Shown here: positions 2,790 to 10,717 of the stretch, in pieces
How the letters are laid out: each line of letters starts with the position of its first letter
How positions within the stretch are numbered: the stretch's first letter is position 1
From: a bacterium
GTDB lineage: Bacteria; Cyanobacteriota; Vampirovibrionia; Gastranaerophilales; JBAXKC01
DNA: 10,856 bases
Reading direction: 5' to 3'
Assembly (NCBI GenBank): GCA_037137535.1
Contig: JBAXKC010000059.1
Location: forward strand, 1-10,856
Notes under the pieces: model-generated
Seen by the model: only the letters and a program-made list of their open reading frames with translations
What the model was told of the DNA's origin: nothing
Database searches by the model: none
Made by a program: the position numbers and the translations under genes

Positions 2790-3656
2790 ATGTTGTCTAG
2801 AGTTGGTTTTAATCCATTTTCTCAATTAAAAACAGAAAATAAAAATAATTCTGTAAAACAGTTTTCGCCAATGAGCTTAAAAACTTTATCAAGAGATACT
2901 GTTAGTTTTAAATCGGATGAAAGTATTGAACAAAAAAAAGCTGAAGCTCCCGAATCAATTCAAAGACTACATAACTATATAGGTAAACTTAAATCTAAAA
3001 TACAAGGAAATATTTTAGTTATTTCAGGTCCGTCAGGTGCAGGTAAAGATACCGTCATTGATCTTATGCGTAAGAAAAATCCAAAAATTAATTCTGTTGT
3101 TTCTCTTGCAACCAGAGATCCTAGACCTGGTGAAATCGATGGAGTTAATTATAAATTTTTAAAAGGTAAAAATAAATATAAAAACTTTGAAAAATTAATA
3201 CATGAAAATAAATTATTCCAGTACATGCATTCAATAGATAATGGTCAGTATTATGGCGTAACTAAAAAAGATCTTGAGCAAAAACGCAAAGGTCATGATG
3301 TTATAATGAACGTAACTGCTGATGAAGCTATGAGAATCAAAAGAGAAAACAAAGATAAAGCCGTTACAATGTTCGTTGATGCCTCTAGCCCCGAGGAACT
3401 TGAAGCAAGGCTAAGAGCCAGAGGAACTGAAAACCCTGAAGAAATAGAAAAAAGGATTAAAAGCGGTATAAAACAGCGTGAATTTGCTCCTGATTTTGAT
3501 AAAATAATTATAAATGCTAAAGGTGCTCAAAATGAAGCCGCTGAAAACATGTCAGACTACATTGATGAACGCAAAGACCCTATATTAAAATCATTAGAAG
3601 ATGTAGAACAATTATTAGAAGAAAAATATGATTTCAGTAATGAGAAAAAGCAATAA
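2790..3656 (+). CDS. Guanylate kinase-like protein with ~70-aa N-terminal extension (divergent Gmk, probably a paralog)
   Basis: P-loop VISGPSGAGKDT, NMP-binding segment SLATRDPRPGEIDGVNYKF, YYG, LID ELEARLRARGTE..EIEKRI. Strong RBS GAGGAG before ATG 2790 supports the extension being translated. Confidence 0.88.
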   Translation: MLSRVGFNPFSQLKTENKNNSVKQFSPMSLKTLSRDTVSFKSDESIEQKKAEAPESIQRLHNYIGKLKSKIQGNILVISGPSGAGKDTVIDLMRKKNPKINSVVSLATRDPRPGEIDGVNYKFLKGKNKYKNFEKLIHENKLFQYMHSIDNGQYYGVTKKDLEQKRKGHDVIMNVTADEAMRIKRENKDKAVTMFVDASSPEELEARLRARGTENPEEIEKRIKSGIKQREFAPDFDKIIINAKGAQNEAAENMSDYIDERKDPILKSLEDVEQLLEEKYDFSNEKKQ

Positions 3657-3670
3657 ATTATAATTATATA

Positions 3671-3703
3671 AAAAAGAAGCTCTGAGAAATCAAGCTTCTT
3701 TTT
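3671..3703. terminator. Bidirectional intrinsic terminator between convergent gmk-like and M16 genes
   Basis: AAAAAGAAGCT-ctgagaaatca-AGCTTCTTTTT, a perfect 11-bp inverted repeat with A/T tracts on both sides. Confidence 0.8.
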
Positions 3704-3712
3704 ATGTGAAAA

Positions 3713-3753
3713 ATAACCTGCTTGTGAGAATAATTCTATCTCTAGCAGGTTAT
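3713..3753 (-). terminator. Second hairpin just downstream of the M16 peptidase stop
   Basis: ATAACCTGCT (3713-3722) pairs with AGCAGGTTAT (3744-3753). On the minus strand it is followed by a T-run. Confidence 0.6.
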
Positions 3754-3766
3754 CAGAATGAATGTA

Positions 3767-6721
3767 CTAATAATTAGTCAGGTCACCAAGCGTTTTTAAG
3801 TAATTTTGCTCATTATTAAGAGTATTTTTACTGGCAACTACAGAAACAACCGAAGGCTGGTTTAAATATAGTCTTGCGGCATTTTGAATGTCTTTAGCTG
3901 TTATATTATCAATTGATTTTAATAACTCTGATAAATATTGTGTGCCGTAAGGAGTATTGAAGCCGCCTTGAATTAAGTCTGTTTTTCCTGCGGAAGATTC
4001 ACATCCAAAGATAATTTTAGATTTTAATGCAAGTTTAGCCGACTTTAGTTCTTCATCTGTCGCAAGTTCGTTTTGCATTTTTTGAATATGATGCTTAAAT
4101 CCATTTAATGATTTTTCAAGATTATCATATTGAGGCTTTCCGTTATTAGCTTTAGGGTCGTCTGTTGTCGTTTTTATTTCTAAAGCTATTTCCCCGATTT
4201 TGCCGTCGGTTATATATTTTGACTTAACCATATAAGCTAGAAGTTGTTTTTCTCTTAAATCCATAAATAATCTGGATTGACTTGTTTCGCCTAAAATGGT
4301 GTTCATTAAGTGTAATGCAGCTCTATCTTTAATATTTCCTGATTCTTTAATTCTGAATAATTGAACGACATGAGCCTGTTGTCTGTCATCAGCTACAGTT
4401 ACAACTTTTGAAGAGTTAAAGTCGGGAACTTTTATATTATTGTCATAATGATAAGGTTTTGAAACTGGGAATCCGTTTTGAAGTCCGTTAAACAGCTTGT
4501 CTTTAAGCTCAGGAGTTTTACTGAACGGAGCTGTTGCAACAATTCTTGTTTGAGCGTTATTTGTAATGTCGTTATAGAACTTTTTGACATCATCAAGTGT
4601 AATACTGTCAATGTTTTCAAGTATTTTTCTTGAGCTGTTACCGAATGGATGATTTCCATACATCGCTTCAACCGCTCTTGTCATAGGATCTTTTTGCTGA
4701 CTTGTAAACTTCAGTTTTAAGCCTGCTTTTATGTCATCAAATATTTTCTGGTCTAAATTTGGACTAAAAAGAATTTCTTTCATTGCCTCAAGTCCCAGAG
4801 CAATATTTTCATTAGGGCAATCAAGCCCAAATATAATTGAATTTGAGCCTGCACTGCCTGCTACTTTGATATTATTCATATCTAGTAAATCAGAAATTAA
4901 TTCTTTTTTATAATGACTTGAACCATTATTAAAAATTTCTGTCAAAATATCAGGAACACCCGGTTTATAGTTAGGAATAGACTCTGATTGAATTAAATAA
5001 TTTATACTTGTTCTTGTGCTTGATGGTGAGTCATTAACAGCAATATGAGCATTAGTATTTAATCTGAATTCTGAAATGTTTTCTGATTTTACTATGTTTT
5101 TTGTTCCTGCAAAAGAAACTTGTTTTGCGGCATTAGTTGCTTTGGGTTGCTGAATAGAGACATTATTTATTGGTTGTTGCTGAGTTGTTGAATCTTTTGC
5201 TTCTTGCTCAACTTTGGCTCTATCTGTTTCAGGATGTAAAAGAACTAATGAAACTTTATTTAAGTTCAAATAAGTCTTAGCTGCATCTTGAATATCAGCA
5301 GCTGTTAATTTATCAATCATTTGAGCTTTTTCCGTATAAGATTTCAAGTCTCCTCTATTCACCATAGCATCACCGATATGATCAGAAATTGCCATAGCAA
5401 ACTCACCTGATACATTCAAGTTATCTTTCAATTTGTTTTTAATGATTTGTAGCTCTATATTGTCGACAGGAATGTTTTTAATTCCTTCTAAAACTTCATA
5501 TACAGATTTTATTCCTTCTTTTTCTTCACCCGATCTGAACAATGTATCAAGCTGGAACACTTGAGGATCATTAAAATTAGGGCTTATGGTTGATATGGAA
5601 GAAGCTGCCTCCGTACTGTATGCTTTAAGCATTAGAGTTAATCTTGCATTGTCATATCCTGTTAAGGCAGTTGCAAGTGCTTCAGCTTTAAGACTTTCTT
5701 TTACGTCATTATTTTTAGGGCCGATAAAACCAAGTCCTACTGTTGTGGAATTAACTAAAGGACTGAATAGATCAGTTCTTATCGGTTTATCTATTTTGGT
5801 ATCAAGAGCTTCGTAATGCTTAGTAAACTTATTCAGATAGTCATCCATTGATTTAATGGATTTTGAGGATTTATCTCCAAAGCATTTAGCCGCCGTTTTT
5901 ATGGCTGTGTTCGGGTCAACATCGCCTACTATAACAGTTGTCATGTTGTCTGGAGTGTACCATTTATTATAATAATCAAGAACATCTTTTCTTGTTAAAT
6001 TACTGACGCTGTTTACTGTTCCTGCAATTAAGTCAGGGCTTTCTGATTTAATATTAAATAATTTTTTTAGCATTGTATTTTGAGCTGTGTTATATGGAGA
6101 ATCTTGATACATTTGAACTTCAGAACAAACAGGCCCTTTTTCTTTTGTAAGCATTTGCTCTGTAAATAATGGGTTTTGAAGCATATCTGCATGCATTGAA
6201 ATTATACTATTAAAATCATTGTCGCCATGAAGCGGAGATTCAATGTAATAATCAGTCATACAGAAATTAGTGCTGGCATTATAGGATGAGCCCATTTCAC
6301 TGACTTTTTTAACAAATTCACCAGGAGCAAGGTCTTTTGAACCATTAAATAAGTTATGCTCAATATAATGGCTTATTCCTCTGATTTTATCAGGTTCATT
6401 AAAAGAGCCGACTTTGACATAAGTTTTAACGGCAGTAGGACCTTCTTTAGGAATAACTACAACTTTCTGACCGTTATTAAGCATATATAACTTACCTTTT
6501 GCATTAAGGTAAGGAACTTCAAATGTTTCTATTTCTTTAAAAGCAGGAGGCGCTGAGATTGATTGGGCTTTAATTGCTTGTATAACAGAAGGAGCGCTAG
6601 CACTTATTGTGTTAGTCTGTTTCTCTTGAACAGACGGTTGTATAAGCTTTGGCTTCTCTTCTTTCGGCTGTAATGTTTTTGGTTTTACAGCCATATTAAA
6701 ATTTAAAGAACTTATATTCAT
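3767..6721 (-). CDS. M16B (pitrilysin/insulinase, MPP-like) zinc metallopeptidase, two modules fused
   Basis: Inverted zincin motif HYIEH (6370-6356) in VKVGSFNEPDKIRGISHYIEHNLFNGS, YNAST, distal Glu in EKGPVCSEVQMYQD, WYTPDNMTTVIVGD. Second module lacks HxxEH but has SRLFMDLREKQLLAY. ATG 6721 (MNISSLNF) preferred over TTG 6748, but the start is uncertain. Confidence 0.93.
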   Translation of the reverse strand: MNISSLNFNMAVKPKTLQPKEEKPKLIQPSVQEKQTNTISASAPSVIQAIKAQSISAPPAFKEIETFEVPYLNAKGKLYMLNNGQKVVVIPKEGPTAVKTYVKVGSFNEPDKIRGISHYIEHNLFNGSKDLAPGEFVKKVSEMGSSYNASTNFCMTDYYIESPLHGDNDFNSIISMHADMLQNPLFTEQMLTKEKGPVCSEVQMYQDSPYNTAQNTMLKKLFNIKSESPDLIAGTVNSVSNLTRKDVLDYYNKWYTPDNMTTVIVGDVDPNTAIKTAAKCFGDKSSKSIKSMDDYLNKFTKHYEALDTKIDKPIRTDLFSPLVNSTTVGLGFIGPKNNDVKESLKAEALATALTGYDNARLTLMLKAYSTEAASSISTISPNFNDPQVFQLDTLFRSGEEKEGIKSVYEVLEGIKNIPVDNIELQIIKNKLKDNLNVSGEFAMAISDHIGDAMVNRGDLKSYTEKAQMIDKLTAADIQDAAKTYLNLNKVSLVLLHPETDRAKVEQEAKDSTTQQQPINNVSIQQPKATNAAKQVSFAGTKNIVKSENISEFRLNTNAHIAVNDSPSSTRTSINYLIQSESIPNYKPGVPDILTEIFNNGSSHYKKELISDLLDMNNIKVAGSAGSNSIIFGLDCPNENIALGLEAMKEILFSPNLDQKIFDDIKAGLKLKFTSQQKDPMTRAVEAMYGNHPFGNSSRKILENIDSITLDDVKKFYNDITNNAQTRIVATAPFSKTPELKDKLFNGLQNGFPVSKPYHYDNNIKVPDFNSSKVVTVADDRQQAHVVQLFRIKESGNIKDRAALHLMNTILGETSQSRLFMDLREKQLLAYMVKSKYITDGKIGEIALEIKTTTDDPKANNGKPQYDNLEKSLNGFKHHIQKMQNELATDEELKSAKLALKSKIIFGCESSAGKTDLIQGGFNTPYGTQYLSELLKSIDNITAKDIQNAARLYLNQPSVVSVVASKNTLNNEQNYLKTLGDLTNY

Positions 6722-6942
6722 AAATAAAACCCAAAAAACTTCCCTCAATACATGATAATAAAGGTTTTTAACTTTTAAAAAGTTTGTTTTTTTTAAGAAA
6801 TTCCTGAAAATAGTTACAAAAGTTAATGCAAATAATTTTAACAGTAGAGCCTATTTTAGGAAATTAATTATTATGTTTTTTCTTTATTACTTTGAAAGTT
6901 AATATAAGAATAAATATCATAATTAAATTAGTATGTGTGCTA

Positions 6943-6971
6943 TTGACACTAATTTGATGAAGCAGTACAAA
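6943..6971 (+). promoter_or_regulatory. Possible sigma70 promoter for the lipid kinase-epimerase pair
   Basis: Perfect TTGACA (6943-6948), 17-nt spacer, imperfect -10 TACAAA (6966-6971). The AT-rich context weakens the call. Confidence 0.35.
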
Positions 6972-7002
6972 TATAGTAATAAATAAAAAACGGCAGTTGA
7001 TC

Positions 7003-7878
7003 ATGAATGAGTTTAAAAAAAATAATAGATATTTACTTGTCTTTAATTCTGAAGCGGGAAAAGGTTCTTCTCTTAATAAAAAAGAATTAATAGTAAAGTA
7101 TTTTATTCAAAAAAAATGTCGTTTTAAAATAATTAATACTGACAGGCTTTCGCAAGTTGAAAATTTTGATAAATATAAAGCCGTTGTAGTTATTGGTGGT
7201 GATGGCACAGTTTTAAAAGCAATTCCTTATGTAATAAATACAAATATAAAACTCGGAATTATACCCTGTGGAACTGCAAATCTATTTGCAGCAAGTCTTT
7301 CAATACCATTTAATATAAAAAAAGCTATTGACATTATAATTAACGATTCAACCTCAAAAGTAGATATAGGAAAAGTTGGGACTGATTATTTTGCATTAAG
7401 AGTAGGTATGGGCTATGATGCAGATGTTGTAAACGGTGCAACACGACTGTTAAAGCAAAAAATCGGGTATCTTGCCTATTTTATTCAAGGTATGATTTAT
7501 AGTTTTAAGCTTTCAACCAAATCTTATACTGTAACTATTGATAATAAAACTTTTGAAATAGATGCTAATGCAATAATAATATCTAATACAGGCAATATGT
7601 TTAGAAATTTATGCACAATTGCCCCATTAGGCTCTATTACTGACGGAAAACTCGATATTTTTATATTGAGAGCAAAAAATATATGGGAATTTTTAACTGT
7701 TTTTGCTCGAATAATCTTCAATAAACATAAACAAAGTGCTAAATCCTTTTATAGTCAGGCAAAAAACATTAAAATTCATTCAATCGACAAAAACATGCAC
7801 ATAGACGGCGAAAGAGTAGCCGAAGAGGATATAGACATCAGCATAATTCCTAAAGCTTTAACCGTTGTGATACCTTGA
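7003..7878 (+). CDS. Diacylglycerol kinase family lipid kinase (YegS/DgkB/BmrU-like)
   Basis: FNSEAGKG (NPxAG-like), IGGDGTV, LGIIPCGTANLFA, VDIG, GMGYDADVV, DGKLDI, HIDGE. ATG 7003 or TTG 6997. Confidence 0.93.
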   Translation: MNEFKKNNRYLLVFNSEAGKGSSLNKKELIVKYFIQKKCRFKIINTDRLSQVENFDKYKAVVVIGGDGTVLKAIPYVINTNIKLGIIPCGTANLFAASLSIPFNIKKAIDIIINDSTSKVDIGKVGTDYFALRVGMGYDADVVNGATRLLKQKIGYLAYFIQGMIYSFKLSTKSYTVTIDNKTFEIDANAIIISNTGNMFRNLCTIAPLGSITDGKLDIFILRAKNIWEFLTVFARIIFNKHKQSAKSFYSQAKNIKIHSIDKNMHIDGERVAEEDIDISIIPKALTVVIP

Positions 7879-7908
7879 CCTATATGTTGTATAGGGAGGA
7901 ATCACATC

Positions 7909-8874
7909 TTGAAAAGAACTTATTTAATTACTGGCGGAGCAGGTTTTATTGGCAGTAGTCTTATTGATAAGCTGATTGATAATGCTAATGTTATATGTGT
8001 AGATAATTTTGATGATTTTTATTCAGAAACAATAAAAAGAAATAATATAAAAAATCATATTGATCATCCAAATTATAAACTTTATGAAGCTGATATTACT
8101 GATTATAGTTCTTTGAAAAGTATTTTTGAATTAAATAATATTACTCATATTGTTCATCTTGCCGCTAATGCAGGTGTAAGACCTTCGCTGCTTATGCCTA
8201 TAAAATATACGAATACGAATATTAATGGGACCGTTAATTTACTTGAGCTGGCAAAAGATTATAAGGTGAAAAAGTTTGTATTTGGCTCTTCAAGTTCTGT
8301 GTACGGTATAAAAACAGATGGAGCTTTTAGTGAGGACGTCAAAATAGATAAACCAATTTCTCCTTATGCCGCCACAAAAGCAGCAGGCGAACAGCTTTGT
8401 TATACTTACAGCCATTTATATGATTTAAGTATTGTGTGCCTTAGATTTTTTACTGTTTATGGCCCAAGACAACGTCCTGATTTAGCTATACATAAGTTTT
8501 CTAAACTTATTAATGAAGGTAAAACAATCCCTATGTTTGGTAATGGCGACACAAAAAGAGATTATACTTTTATAGATGATATTTTACAGGGATTAATTGC
8601 CTCTATTGATTATACTGACAGTCAATATGAAGTAATAAATCTCGGAGAATCAAATACAGTTGAGCTGAATTATTTAATTGAATTACTTGAACAAAATATT
8701 GGTAAAAAAGCTATTATTGAAAAATATCCAATGCAACCGGGTGATGTTCCGATTACTTACGCAGATGTTACAAAAGCTCAGAGATTACTTGATTATAATC
8801 CTACAACCCCTATTGAAAAAGGATTAGAGGTATTTACAGAATGGTTTAAAGAATATTATAAAGTTATGGTTTAA
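7909..8874 (+). CDS. NAD-dependent nucleotide-sugar epimerase (extended SDR, UDP-glucuronate 4-epimerase-like)
   Basis: TGGAGFIG, HLAANAGVRPSL, GSSSSVYG, catalytic YAATK, LRFFTVYGPRQRPDLA, RDYTFIDD, QPGDVPITYAD. TTG start with RBS GGGAGG. Confidence 0.95.
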   Translation: MKRTYLITGGAGFIGSSLIDKLIDNANVICVDNFDDFYSETIKRNNIKNHIDHPNYKLYEADITDYSSLKSIFELNNITHIVHLAANAGVRPSLLMPIKYTNTNINGTVNLLELAKDYKVKKFVFGSSSSVYGIKTDGAFSEDVKIDKPISPYAATKAAGEQLCYTYSHLYDLSIVCLRFFTVYGPRQRPDLAIHKFSKLINEGKTIPMFGNGDTKRDYTFIDDILQGLIASIDYTDSQYEVINLGESNTVELNYLIELLEQNIGKKAIIEKYPMQPGDVPITYADVTKAQRLLDYNPTTPIEKGLEVFTEWFKEYYKVMV

Positions 8875-8882
8875 TTTTGCAG

Positions 8883-8921
8883 TTCAAAAGAAGCAAGCCA
8901 ATGAGGTTTGCTTCTTTTGAA
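8883..8921. terminator. Bidirectional intrinsic terminator between convergent epimerase and calpain genes
   Basis: TTCAAAAGAAGCAAGCC-aatga-GGTTTGCTTCTTTTGAA, a 17-bp stem with one G-T pair. Confidence 0.85.
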
Positions 8922-8941
8922 TTCTCACGATTTATAAAGAT

Positions 8942-10717
8942 TTAACTCCTGAATGGAAGTTTTACCCATCTTAGCCTATCAAAATAATTAAAAAATTCGT
9001 CAAAAGTATATTCTCTTTCTTTATTTGTATCATGAGGATTTATAAGTGTAATTGTTTCATTTTCGTTATCAATTTCTTTTACTGCATAGGAATGATTCAT
9101 AAAAATATTTTTAGATCTATTTTGAGTTATGTTTTCACTTGTTCCAACAGTTAAAACATAATCTTCAGGATTATTTGAAACTTCGTTAAATATTTCTTTA
9201 ACTTCATTTTTAGCATCTATGTCACTATAAAAAGATTCATCCTTACTAATAATTTCTCTTTTTTCCGTTGCTCCTGTTAAAGAGTATAAGGCATCATTTG
9301 CATTTACTCCGGTAATCCAATGTTTCCAATTATTAGGAGATTTTACATCTGCTTTCCAGTTCATACTTTCTTTAAGTTTTGAATAGCTGTATTCAAGAAG
9401 CGGAACAAATTTATTATTAGGAGCATTGACGATATCAGTGTCTTTTAATAGGGAAGAAAATTCATTGTAACTTATTTCAATAGGATTTTGAGGGAAACCT
9501 GGAAATGTAACAGTATATTTGTAATTTTTGTTGTCTGTTTTTATCATTTTAGGGATTAGTTCATTAATTTCAGGTTTTAATGAAAGTGAAGAAAGAGCAG
9601 CAATAAAGCTGCAATCGCCAATTTGTCCCTGCTTGATTTTCAGGTTATTAAATCCTGCTATTGCTAAGCTGGCAAAATTGGTGTTTTGTATAAAATCAGC
9701 TGCATTAGAAGATATACGTCTTAGACCGCTTTTAGCATTAAGAAAAATATCATTATCAACAGAAAAAAGCGAATTTACAGGTAATATGGTTTTATCATAC
9801 GGGAAACATCTTACAAAACTGTTTCCATCAAGTTCTCCAACTAAATCTCCTGAATTTGTTAATGTAATTGAGTTATCCGAATTCTTTTCTACTGTTACAT
9901 AAGAAAACTTATTGGTATTATTTGGGCTAAGTTTTATATCGCTATCTTTATCTATACCTATTTTAACTTTTTTATTTAACGGTAGTTTATATAGTTCACC
10001 TCTTTGTGCAAAAGAAGAAACTTCATCGTAATCATTTTGGAAATTATTTTGAATTGTATTTTGTATTTCTTTATAAAGTTGCTCTTTTAAATCTAAAGCT
10101 TTTTCTTTTGACATAGTGAATAATATATCACGATTATTATTGATAAAAGTTTTAATTATTGATTTATCTTTGTTTTGAAGTGCAGAATTTAATTTTTCGT
10201 AATCTTTATTATTTTCATCAGGATCAGAAAGTTCAAAGCCATAATCGTTTAACAATATGGCATTTTCCGTTGAAGTTGTATCGTGTAATAAGTTTTTATT
10301 GTTATTATCATTGTAAAATTTTGCAATTGAAGTATATAAACATAATGCAAATTCATTTTTACTTATATCGTCTATAGTATAATATACTCCCTTTTTGAAA
10401 TAAAGATCGAAAGCAGTAGAAAGTTTTTTTATTGAATGATTTACTTGAATAGAGGATTTAACATTGTATATTTCATGTCCGCTTGAGCTCATCTCTCCAT
10501 AGCCCATTACATAATTTCTTGAAAGTTTGTTTTCAGGGGTATATATATATTCTTTTGGTTCGGGTTTTATTTCGGTATTTCTATTGCTATAAGTTTTTTT
10601 CGTAAAACTAACTACATCTGAAGATAAACTAGGTAGTTTAATTTGGTTTAGAGGTATTATTGCTTTTTTACCTAGGGATTGAGAACTTAATGTGGAGAAA
10701 AGATTTAACTTAATCAT
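8942..10717 (-). CDS. Calpain-family (peptidase C2) cysteine protease with long N-terminal region
   Basis: IKQGQIGDC369SFIAALSSL (cf. QGxLGDCW), LLEYSYSKL (cf. LLEKAYAKL), ALYSLTG, NH542SYAV (cf. HAYSV), ITLIN560PHD (cf. LRNPWG). Complete Cys-His-Asn triad plus oxyanion Gln363. RBS AAGGA. Confidence 0.9.
   Translation of the reverse strand: MIKLNLFSTLSSQSLGKKAIIPLNQIKLPSLSSDVVSFTKKTYSNRNTEIKPEPKEYIYTPENKLSRNYVMGYGEMSSSGHEIYNVKSSIQVNHSIKKLSTAFDLYFKKGVYYTIDDISKNEFALCLYTSIAKFYNDNNNKNLLHDTTSTENAILLNDYGFELSDPDENNKDYEKLNSALQNKDKSIIKTFINNNRDILFTMSKEKALDLKEQLYKEIQNTIQNNFQNDYDEVSSFAQRGELYKLPLNKKVKIGIDKDSDIKLSPNNTNKFSYVTVEKNSDNSITLTNSGDLVGELDGNSFVRCFPYDKTILPVNSLFSVDNDIFLNAKSGLRRISSNAADFIQNTNFASLAIAGFNNLKIKQGQIGDCSFIAALSSLSLKPEINELIPKMIKTDNKNYKYTVTFPGFPQNPIEISYNEFSSLLKDTDIVNAPNNKFVPLLEYSYSKLKESMNWKADVKSPNNWKHWITGVNANDALYSLTGATEKREIISKDESFYSDIDAKNEVKEIFNEVSNNPEDYVLTVGTSENITQNRSKNIFMNHSYAVKEIDNENETITLINPHDTNKEREYTFDEFFNYFDRLRWVKLPFRS

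Follow-up and report, generated by a model that had tools for sequence, protein, structure and literature searches.

Known proteome-wide sorting tags include PEP-CTERM/exosortase, the C-terminal domain of the type IX secretion system (T9SS), and LXG and other N-terminal polymorphic-toxin trafficking modules. Here we describe a candidate tag of a similar kind, a leader with a short V-S-F motif. It was noticed at the N-termini of two enzymes, a guanylate-kinase-like protein and a calpain-type peptidase, encoded in a 10,856-nucleotide stretch of DNA (the window; contig JBAXKC010000059.1 of assembly GCA_037137535.1) from a bacterium of the order Gastranaerophilales. Like the known tags, it is one short sequence carried by dozens of unrelated, often clustered, fast-evolving proteins, divergent paralogues among them, in one lineage. 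It is unlike them in being N-terminal, ∼10 residues long and placed in a predicted disordered leader with no membrane anchor, and no cognate sorting enzyme was identified.

Organellar presequences are acid-poor and hydroxyl-rich, and M16 enzymes cut them near aromatic residues. With mitochondrial and chloroplast presequences (processing peptidases MPP and SPP) our leaders have in common that they are unstructured, acid-poor, hydroxyl-rich and found on unrelated enzymes with leaderless counterparts, and that a two-half M16 enzyme is conserved alongside. They differ in that the host is a bacterium of free-living type for which no internal compartment is known, that the leaders are rich in Asn and Lys and not Arg, and that a discrete motif replaces the amphipathic helix. 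Early flagellar type III export signals offer another parallel: there too the N-terminus is disordered and unchaperoned, and a short hydrophobic motif follows some tens of residues after Met1. The rod and hook proteins of the organism itself carry [DKR]-[VI]-x-F, and the lineage has two export gates. Work by Evans in 2013 reportedly gave the consensus of the gate motif as F-x-x-x-hydrophobic. RVxF of protein phosphatase 1 (PP1) interactors and the TonB box are strand motifs of 5-7 residues with alternating hydrophobics that are read by strand addition, and V-S-F resembles both in its alternation of hydrophobic positions and in being a strand-forming stretch within disordered sequence. However, the partner of RVxF is eukaryotic and basic residues are preferred before its Val, where Asp or Asn is preferred here, and for the TonB box no TonB-dependent receptor was found in the source genome.

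Our analysis covered the occurrence of the motif in the source genome of the window, the proteins that carry it, its conservation in relatives and the export machinery encoded beside it. The leader would seem to be a proteome-wide sorting or processing tag for which no Pfam or NCBIfam model and no literature description were found; the literature search was of open-access texts.

Results

A short linear motif almost confined to protein N-termini

The source genome (G000) is a 2.95-Mb assembly of 81 contigs with ∼31% G+C, in which the window is contig C59. The gene set consisted of 2612 open reading frames (ORFs) from crude calls (longest ORF, at least 70 aa, greedy overlap removal). Starts are those of the longest ORF and were checked individually in the window only; some are plainly over-called, for example in C2_28913. 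Comparisons across the class used 201 genomes and those across the order 41 (40 besides the source genome).

The pattern D.VSF occurs 20 times in the gene set, 15 of these at aa 31-50. An unbiased tripeptide scan placed VSF first for enrichment in aa 2-80: it was seen 80 times there, whereas its frequency in the remaining protein sequence predicts 28.0 (z 9.8) and composition predicts 42.1 (z 5.8). A position matrix settled on [ND]-x-[VI]-S-F-[KSAG]-[GSA], and 53 proteins scored at least 12 bits. Nine of them were removed by eye, the match lying inside a known fold (GNAT, SpoU, NAT, ABC, RTX and others), and the remaining 44 are referred to as bearers. A looser pattern widens the union to 124 ORFs, false positives included. 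Roughly 2-4% of the ORFs of this genome carry the motif.

The earlier note, written from the window alone, had proposed a test for N-terminal enrichment over shuffled controls, and enrichment was found. In two-fold cross-validation, 17 of the 2612 N-termini reached 14 bits, compared with none of 2612 shuffled N-termini, one of 1032 interiors and none of 1032 C-terminal stretches; at 12 bits the corresponding counts were 26, 6, 1 and 4. Beyond aa 100, ∼594,000 residues yielded five matches of at least 14 bits versus three in shuffled interiors, and the highest of the five is in the linker of the M16 peptidase described below.

Across at least 44 proteins the consensus is [LI]-x-x-[DN]-x-[VI]-S-F-[KGSA]-[GSA]. 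Among the 44 bearers, 27 have a hydrophobic residue at V-6 to V-4 and 23 have Asp or Asn at V-2, and these upstream preferences give rise to the L-x-x-L-S-x-D-x-V-S-F seen in the two window motifs. Lys or Arg occupies V-1 or V-2 in 14. Small residues follow the Phe, with frequencies at position +2 of 0.33 for Gly, 0.20 for Ser and 0.18 for Ala, and of 0.14 for Gly at +1. The Val lies between aa 11 and 76 (aa 26 or later in 32 bearers, earlier in 12), so that a nearly constant distance from Met1, as had been claimed, holds for the two window motifs and not in general. The motif Ser is spelled AGY 11 times and TCN 24 times (44 hits of at least 20 bits); because both codon boxes are drawn upon, the constraint is on the peptide and not on the DNA. 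We take it for a short linear motif that is kept by purifying selection, lies almost exclusively at N-termini and would be read in trans.

Leaders on unrelated accessory proteins

After removal of the leaders, the 44 bodies form 43 unrelated BLAST components. Pfam domains were found in 14 bearers: DHH (2), M15, VanY, Gmk, AAA, DEAD+DSHCT helicase, M14, starch-synthase-like and, among the remaining ones, alpha-amylase-like, AAA+M41, hexapeptide/CysE-like and M16. Family labels from Pfam and NCBIfam combined include DHH/NrnA-like, Hel308/Ski2-type helicase, GlgA-like, TreZ/GlgB-like, FtsH-like and CysE-like, and every bearer with an NCBIfam match scores far under the equivalog cut-off. For ∼30 bearers neither database gave a family match, and all matches fall on bodies, with no model over the leader. 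An ESM Atlas search with a 203-aa bearer returned a best score of 0.79, which is at noise level. The bearers include additional, divergent versions of housekeeping enzymes, peptidases of the cell wall, small membrane proteins rich in Gly and Ala, and many proteins without family, the largest cargo being 1179 residues long.

Asn (18% of residues), Ser, Gln and Lys are abundant in the leaders, Arg makes up 2.9%, and there is a depletion of Asp, Glu, Gly, Ala, Val and Trp. Over residues 1-25, the mean count of Asp+Glu is 1.0 in bearers and 2.86 in other proteins, and that of Ser/Thr/Asn/Gln is 9.8 versus 5.8. Structure prediction makes the leaders disordered. They resemble each other weakly (27 pairs at E <=1e-3, with no composition correction); the kinase-like leader and that of C15_47258, for example, share 42% identity over 40 residues. 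This likeness may come from common descent or from common constraint. Bearer genes are clustered: five adjacent pairs were seen against 0.73 expected, a number reached in 0 of 2000 randomisations, and there are runs on contigs C15, C16 and C25.

Several features of these runs stand out. At C16:21807-30933 (locus L098), just 3' of groES-groEL, five co-oriented genes encode proteins of 1179, 539, 319, 239 and 713 aa, the first an M15 peptidase, all with the leader motif or variants of it. At C25:27023-30881, six successive ORFs fit the loose pattern, and two of them (115 and 111 aa) have near-identical starts, both with QVAFSG. C15:36165-36956 (locus L097:8168-8956) encodes a 263-aa cytidine deaminase with a leader and the motif variant TNVKFTG; a Na+/nucleoside transporter gene is ∼1.6 kb away, two genes off. 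An ordinary 129-aa cytidine deaminase is encoded elsewhere, at C16:12001-12390, the same pattern as that of the two guanylate kinases. Adjoining the bearer cluster on C15 are four paralogues of ∼200 aa (C15:29318-29917, 44822-45466, 45683-46267 and 46452-47096; locus L097), all of which start with MGLAASQGR and have no Pfam match.

The window genes

The window encodes Skp, a 134-aa exported hypothetical protein, HisS, the guanylate-kinase-like protein, an M16 peptidase, a lipid kinase, an epimerase and the calpain-type peptidase. The positions of both N-terminal motifs were reconfirmed (Table 1), and the internal controls named in the earlier note behaved as described there: HisS, the lipid kinase and the epimerase begin at their folds, and hydrophobic N-termini of the Sec type are found on Skp and the 134-aa hypothetical protein.

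Table 1. Coordinates of motif-related features in the window
Feature	Position	Strand	Details
Guanylate-kinase-like gene	2790..3656	+	288 aa; Pfam Guanylate_kin aa 74-258; divergent second copy with leader
Leader of kinase-like protein, aa 1-46	2790..2927	+	Predicted disordered, AlphaFold2
Motif LKTLSRDTVSFKS, kinase-like protein aa 30-42	2877..2915	+	Sequence
Calpain-type (Peptidase_C2) gene with leader	8942..10717	-	591 aa; Pfam Peptidase_C2 aa 349-561
Motif LPSLSSDVVSFTK, Peptidase_C2 protein aa 28-40	10598..10636	-	Sequence
Fused two-half M16 peptidase, MPP-like arrangement, HxxEH in first half	3767..6748	-	Pfam M16, M16_C
N-terminal leader of M16 peptidase, aa 1-56 counted from ATG at 6721	6554..6721	-	pLDDT <50
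Weak motif variant PPAFKE of M16 N-terminus	6533-6550	-	Sequence
Disordered linker between M16 halves, with KQVSFAG	5096..5188	-	VSF at nt 5111-5119

GAGGAG stands ∼7 nt 5' of the ATG of the kinase-like gene (2790) and AAGGA ∼7 nt 5' of that of the protease (10717), and the internal Met28 of the kinase-like ORF has no Shine-Dalgarno site. The leaders are therefore translated. The kinase-like protein scores 135.8 bits, below the NCBIfam equivalog cut-off of 160.45, and an ordinary leaderless Gmk copy is encoded at C9:62454-63032. In its AlphaFold2 model (alignment A1), pLDDT is <50 for residues 1-46 and ∼90 from residue 50 on.

Conservation in relatives

Two genomes of family f10, out of the 40 searched in the order besides the source genome, gave a match to the kinase-like paralogue that covers the leader. 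The leader differs in these two homologues and AVSFKS is kept. Six metagenomic homologues (44-69% identity) keep L-S-x-D-T-x-x-F, and in an alignment of nine kinase-like sequences the Asp is kept in seven and the Phe, within one column, in all nine, while the flanks vary. Calpain homologues occur in 16 of the 201 genomes of the class. Several distant ones from other families have DSVAFSG, DSVQFSA or DTVGFGK at aa ∼31-47; in family f12, six of seven show nothing like the motif. For the VanY-like bearer, class-wide matches in 4 of 201 genomes were too few for a comparison of leaders. Given how few genomes match these three bearers, the bearers are accessory genes.

Samples of 400 kb were searched in four relatives. 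Individual convincing bearers were present in G028 (family f3), G015 (f9) and G055 (f18), and none of the 373 ORFs sampled from G110 (f12) was credible. N-termini like the (V/I)SF(G/K/T) ones that the earlier note ascribed to relatives are thus present in sampled genomes as well as in orthologues. With the matrix at 14 bits or more, 2 of 397 and 3 of 391 N-termini matched versus none after shuffling, which is statistically weak. Because enrichment is weak or absent in the samples of all four relatives, the large expansion of the motif is a feature of the source genome's own lineage.

A profile of 33 leaders of the source genome (A3) was also searched over the 201 genomes. Being Asn-rich it favours AT-rich genomes and is a poor phyletic measure; it gave 37 matches in the source genome, 33 of them by construction, and few and weak ones elsewhere. 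A best E of <=0.05 was reached in 23 of 48 genomes of family f3, 2 of 12 of f16 and none of 47 of f12.

A conserved copy inside the M16 peptidase

By NCBIfam, the fused M16 peptidase is YfmH-like in its N-terminal and YfmF-like in its C-terminal half. All 41 genomes of the order encode it, and H118, E121 and H122 are invariant in the alignment (A4). Its true start is probably the ATG at 6721. The AlphaFold2 model has a mean pLDDT of 85, with values <50 at residues 1-56 and 512-542.

In an alignment of 29 orthologues, the linker that joins the halves is hypervariable in length and sequence, except for the motif: 28 of them retain [KN]-x-[VIL]-[SNGA]-F-[KGTSN]-[GSA], whose Phe is an invariant column. 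No start codon lies in the linker, its motif is the best internal matrix match in the source genome (18.2 bits), and KKVSFAG stands at the corresponding site of the paralogue C34_20528. An internal QVSFAG had been pointed out from the window alone, and it lies at aa 543-548. Since the motif is kept in a hypervariable linker and other internal hits are at chance level, it is a true short linear motif that is normally N-terminal. Conservation in this linker is the strongest evidence for the motif. The internal copy looks like the kept leader of a once-separate second subunit.

At the place of the weak N-terminal variant, M16 orthologues have G-Y-[KR]-E or S-Y-T-K, and six of nine orthologues from family f3 have x-x-F-[KRN]-G at aa 19-36. 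M16 was counted in 1/47 and 0/26 genomes of f12 and in 0/12 of f16. In many f3 genomes, matches to a second fused M16 paralogue contain one to three in-frame TAA codons (e.g. G149:C15:12117-14645 and G109:C5:56157-58685), which could be due to decay, to split genes or to alignment across gene borders.

Comparison with described signal types

The motif fits none of the described Sec, Tat, lipoprotein, pilin and double-glycine patterns. As regards Sec, no hydrophobic 19-residue window precedes the motif in any of the 44 bearers; a hydrophobic segment is absent everywhere in 30 and follows the motif in 14. For Tat, no Arg-Arg was found before the Phe in the 53 listed leaders. A double-glycine leader was rejected on the Gly frequencies at +1 and +2 given above and on the size of the cargo; the source genome has two C39 ABC transporters. 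For the TonB box, PF00593 had no match in the source genome and did match in control genomes. Four proteins there have TonB_C, one of them doubly, and ExbD pairs are present (C13:20270-21397, C7:89774-90997 and C12:62668-65283). Cargo of a contractile injection system was rejected likewise: the phage-type sheath, with one gene in the source genome, occurs in 10 of the 41 genomes that represent the order, and G028, a genome with bearers, is not among these. VirB4 and TssC were not found in the source genome. The leader itself fits the organellar-type description, being N-terminal, acid-poor and unstructured and found on proteins with leaderless homologues; its removal by M16 after import into a compartment would be the hypothetical part. 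The first description of the leader, as common to unrelated enzymes, non-Sec, non-Tat, lineage-wide and outside the curated families of Pfam and NCBIfam, was upheld by these results.

Flagellar-type export systems

The source genome encodes two full-length FlhA, two FlhB and four proteins with the FlhA C-terminal domain only. One set of genes, here called type A, goes with FliPQR, FlhB, FliFGHI, a hook and seven flagellin-domain matches. The other, type B, lies at C13:60-11444 (locus L140) and comprises FliI, FlhA, FliH, FliF, FliE, an SLT lytic transglycosylase, FlgB-/FlgC-like and two FlgF/G-like proteins and two unknowns; its FlhB is on C21:47278-48351 (locus L183:1501-2571). A search of this genome gave no hook or flagellin that belongs to the type-B set. 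The four stand-alone FlhA-C proteins (C2:107681-109057, C34:182-1675, C27:25204-26991 and C60:3193-4608) have unrelated sequence ahead of the domain, and one protein of this kind, ∼495 aa long, is encoded by almost all genomes of the order.

In family f3, flagellin is found in none of ten genomes and there is no type-A FlhA. The type-B FlhA is kept, the type-B FlhB is found in 10/10, and there is one stand-alone FlhA-C protein. In the five f3 genomes checked, axial genes number only three or four, all small and clustered and none of hook size. The f3 genome sampled above, G028, has bearers. Across the class, FlhA occurs in 152 of 201 genomes, including 12/12 of family f16, 0/2 of f17 and 1/47 of f12, the family without profile A3 matches at E <=0.05 or, in the sampled genome, credible bearers. 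Of the orphan export machines, the type-B apparatus alone turned up in every case where there were bearers, and it may be a non-flagellar type III machine. Di Rienzi et al. 2013 (PMC3787301) read one gut genome without filament, cap, junction and L/P-ring genes as a case of genome reduction.

The rod and hook proteins of the source genome contain DVSF (three times), DINF, KVNF and RVEF at aa ∼40-62. Bryant et al. 2022 (PMC8983047) assign the gate recognition motif to this region and report a required distance of at least about 26-30 residues from the N-terminus.

Discussion

We tentatively favour, at somewhat less than an even chance, a leader that is a non-Sec targeting presequence, with the type-B apparatus as its likeliest route. 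A disordered leader of 10-80 residues with one short linear motif would be read in trans by a common partner and would mark an accessory, fast-evolving set of proteins for one destination. The receiver would be the type-B flagellum-related export apparatus, at whose cytoplasmic gate the V-S-F strand would dock, as [VI]-x-F presumably does in the rod and hook proteins of this organism, and the leader might then be clipped at the motif. A targeting or processing presequence is suggested by the near-exclusive N-terminal position of the motif, the predicted disorder and acid-poor composition of the leader, the unrelated accessory cargo, the clustering of the genes and the lack of any Sec or Tat feature. 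The type-B route is suggested because this is the only orphan export machine wherever bearers were seen, and because the rod and hook proteins carry a similar [VI]-x-F. Support for a type III or flagellar route is circumstantial. That route had been proposed in the earlier note. The proposal gains from the co-occurrence of a second, rod-bearing apparatus without hook or flagellin, and markers of type IV and type VI secretion systems were not found in the source genome; it loses in that the leaders do not fit the downstream hydrophobic position of the docking motif of early substrates and have no detectable homology to rod N-termini.

A number of observations weigh against targeting by this route. 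The Phe is present in all 44 bearers but a hydrophobic residue at F+4 in only 11, where ∼8 are expected from the local frequency of 0.19. In 32 bearers the motif is as far from the N-terminus as a gate motif has to be, and in 12 it is nearer, within 26 residues of Met1, on starts that are longest-ORF calls; in the sampled bearers of family f3 it lies nearer still, at aa 4-18. Flg_bb_rod (PF00460), searched with E up to 10, gave nine matches in the source genome, none of them in bearers, and the candidate cargo consists of enzymes and membrane proteins, not axial subunits. Many bodies are ATP-dependent enzymes, which would be idle outside the cytoplasm. In seven bearers a hydrophobic segment or transmembrane helix begins 11-36 residues past the Phe, which is awkward for export, and the internal copy in M16 has no obvious use for an N-terminal export signal. 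The density of a simple pattern in N-termini relative to the remaining protein is 3.1 in the source genome, 1.6 in G028, 0.6 in G015, 2.2 in G055 and 0.9 in G110. Upstream of the bearers no common promoter word or sigma-28-like box was found, and the only enriched sequences were AT-rich words and a few rare 7- and 8-mers (5-10 occurrences). The phyletic link to the apparatus depends on few related lineages that differ in composition, so that kinship and G+C content are confounding factors. Export, cleavage and binding of the leader are all putative.

The alternative that survives best keeps the bearers in the cell. The V-S-F strand would bind an intracellular hub, such as a scaffold, a chaperone or a protease or phosphatase adaptor, and would localise, regulate or destabilise the bearers with no export. 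Such docking is doubtful, although several of the difficulties just listed speak for it: the bodies are mostly cytoplasmic-type ATP-using enzymes, a leader before a membrane helix would stay in the cytoplasm as the tail of an N-in protein (the VanY-like and CysE-like bearers are examples), and the variable position of the motif together with the internal copy in M16 fits a position-independent motif. The eukaryotic PP1 docking motif is [RK]-x-[VI]-x-[FW], and the core of our motif resembles it. However, V-2 prefers Asp or Asn to basic residues, and docking motifs usually occur anywhere in disordered regions, whereas internal hits here are at chance except for the M16 linker and C-terminal stretches have none at 14 bits. 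Docking thus leaves the N-terminal restriction unexplained, and no hub candidate was identified.

A second alternative, compatible with targeting, takes the leaders as propeptides that are cut at or beside [VI]-S-F by one protease, for which the order-wide M16 peptidase is the candidate; the site in its linker would then part or regulate its own two halves. We regard processing by M16 as unlikely, although it accounts best for the M16 linker, where the motif is kept with an invariant Phe in a disordered, hypervariable part of a single chain that has no internal start, and where the paralogue has it too. The two-half layout is like that of presequence-processing peptidases, HxxEH is intact, small residues follow the Phe, the leaders are acid-poor and hydroxyl-rich as organellar presequences are, and M16 is as scarce in f12 as it is universal in the order. 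Tracking across the class is poor and depends on thresholds, however, with f16 lacking M16 in all 12 genomes and yet having FlhA in all 12 and profile matches in two. M16's own N-terminal variant is weak, and propeptides would have no evident use on ∼44 unrelated cytoplasmic-type proteins unless they also served in targeting.

Very improbable is an uptake motif of the TonB-box or bacteriocin type, or a cargo signal for contractile injection. D-[ST]-V-x-F-x-[GA] does resemble the alternating pattern of the TonB box, and the genome has the four TonB_C proteins, the sheath gene and, among its bearers, cell-wall peptidases and a deaminase; but it has no TonB-dependent receptor barrel, TonB_C domains are periplasmic, the sheath is patchy among relatives and missing from a bearer-containing one, and no leaderless immunity-like genes lie between the clustered bearers. 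An artefact of low-complexity composition, over-extended ORF starts or a nucleotide-level element has next to no probability, for although longest-ORF calls in an AT-rich genome with Asn-rich leaders and some over-called starts could invite it, shuffled N-termini never reach 14 bits, both Ser codon boxes are used, Shine-Dalgarno sites mark the annotated starts of both window genes, and orthologues keep the motif though their flanks change.

The targeting presequence has a more far-reaching form, in which the bearers are substrates of a class-wide, hitherto unrecognised non-flagellar type III machine, the rod-only type-B apparatus, with V-S-F as the gate-docking signal and M16 as the leader peptidase. 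That all of these parts hold together is improbable. If they did, enzymes and small membrane proteins of this lineage would reach the envelope or the inside of other cells by a bacterial system of presequence and processing, through a machine kept by gut families that lost flagellin and hook. Proteome-wide sorting tags have repeatedly led to new machinery, and the host belongs to the non-photosynthetic sister class of Cyanobacteria, which has few cultured members. The motif gives a handle on the purpose of an extra, hook-less flagellar gene set, on why divergent second copies of housekeeping enzymes are kept, and on a bacterial counterpart of organellar presequence-plus-M16 processing. Even if it is a docking site only, it defines a testable interaction network of ∼50 proteins in this organism.

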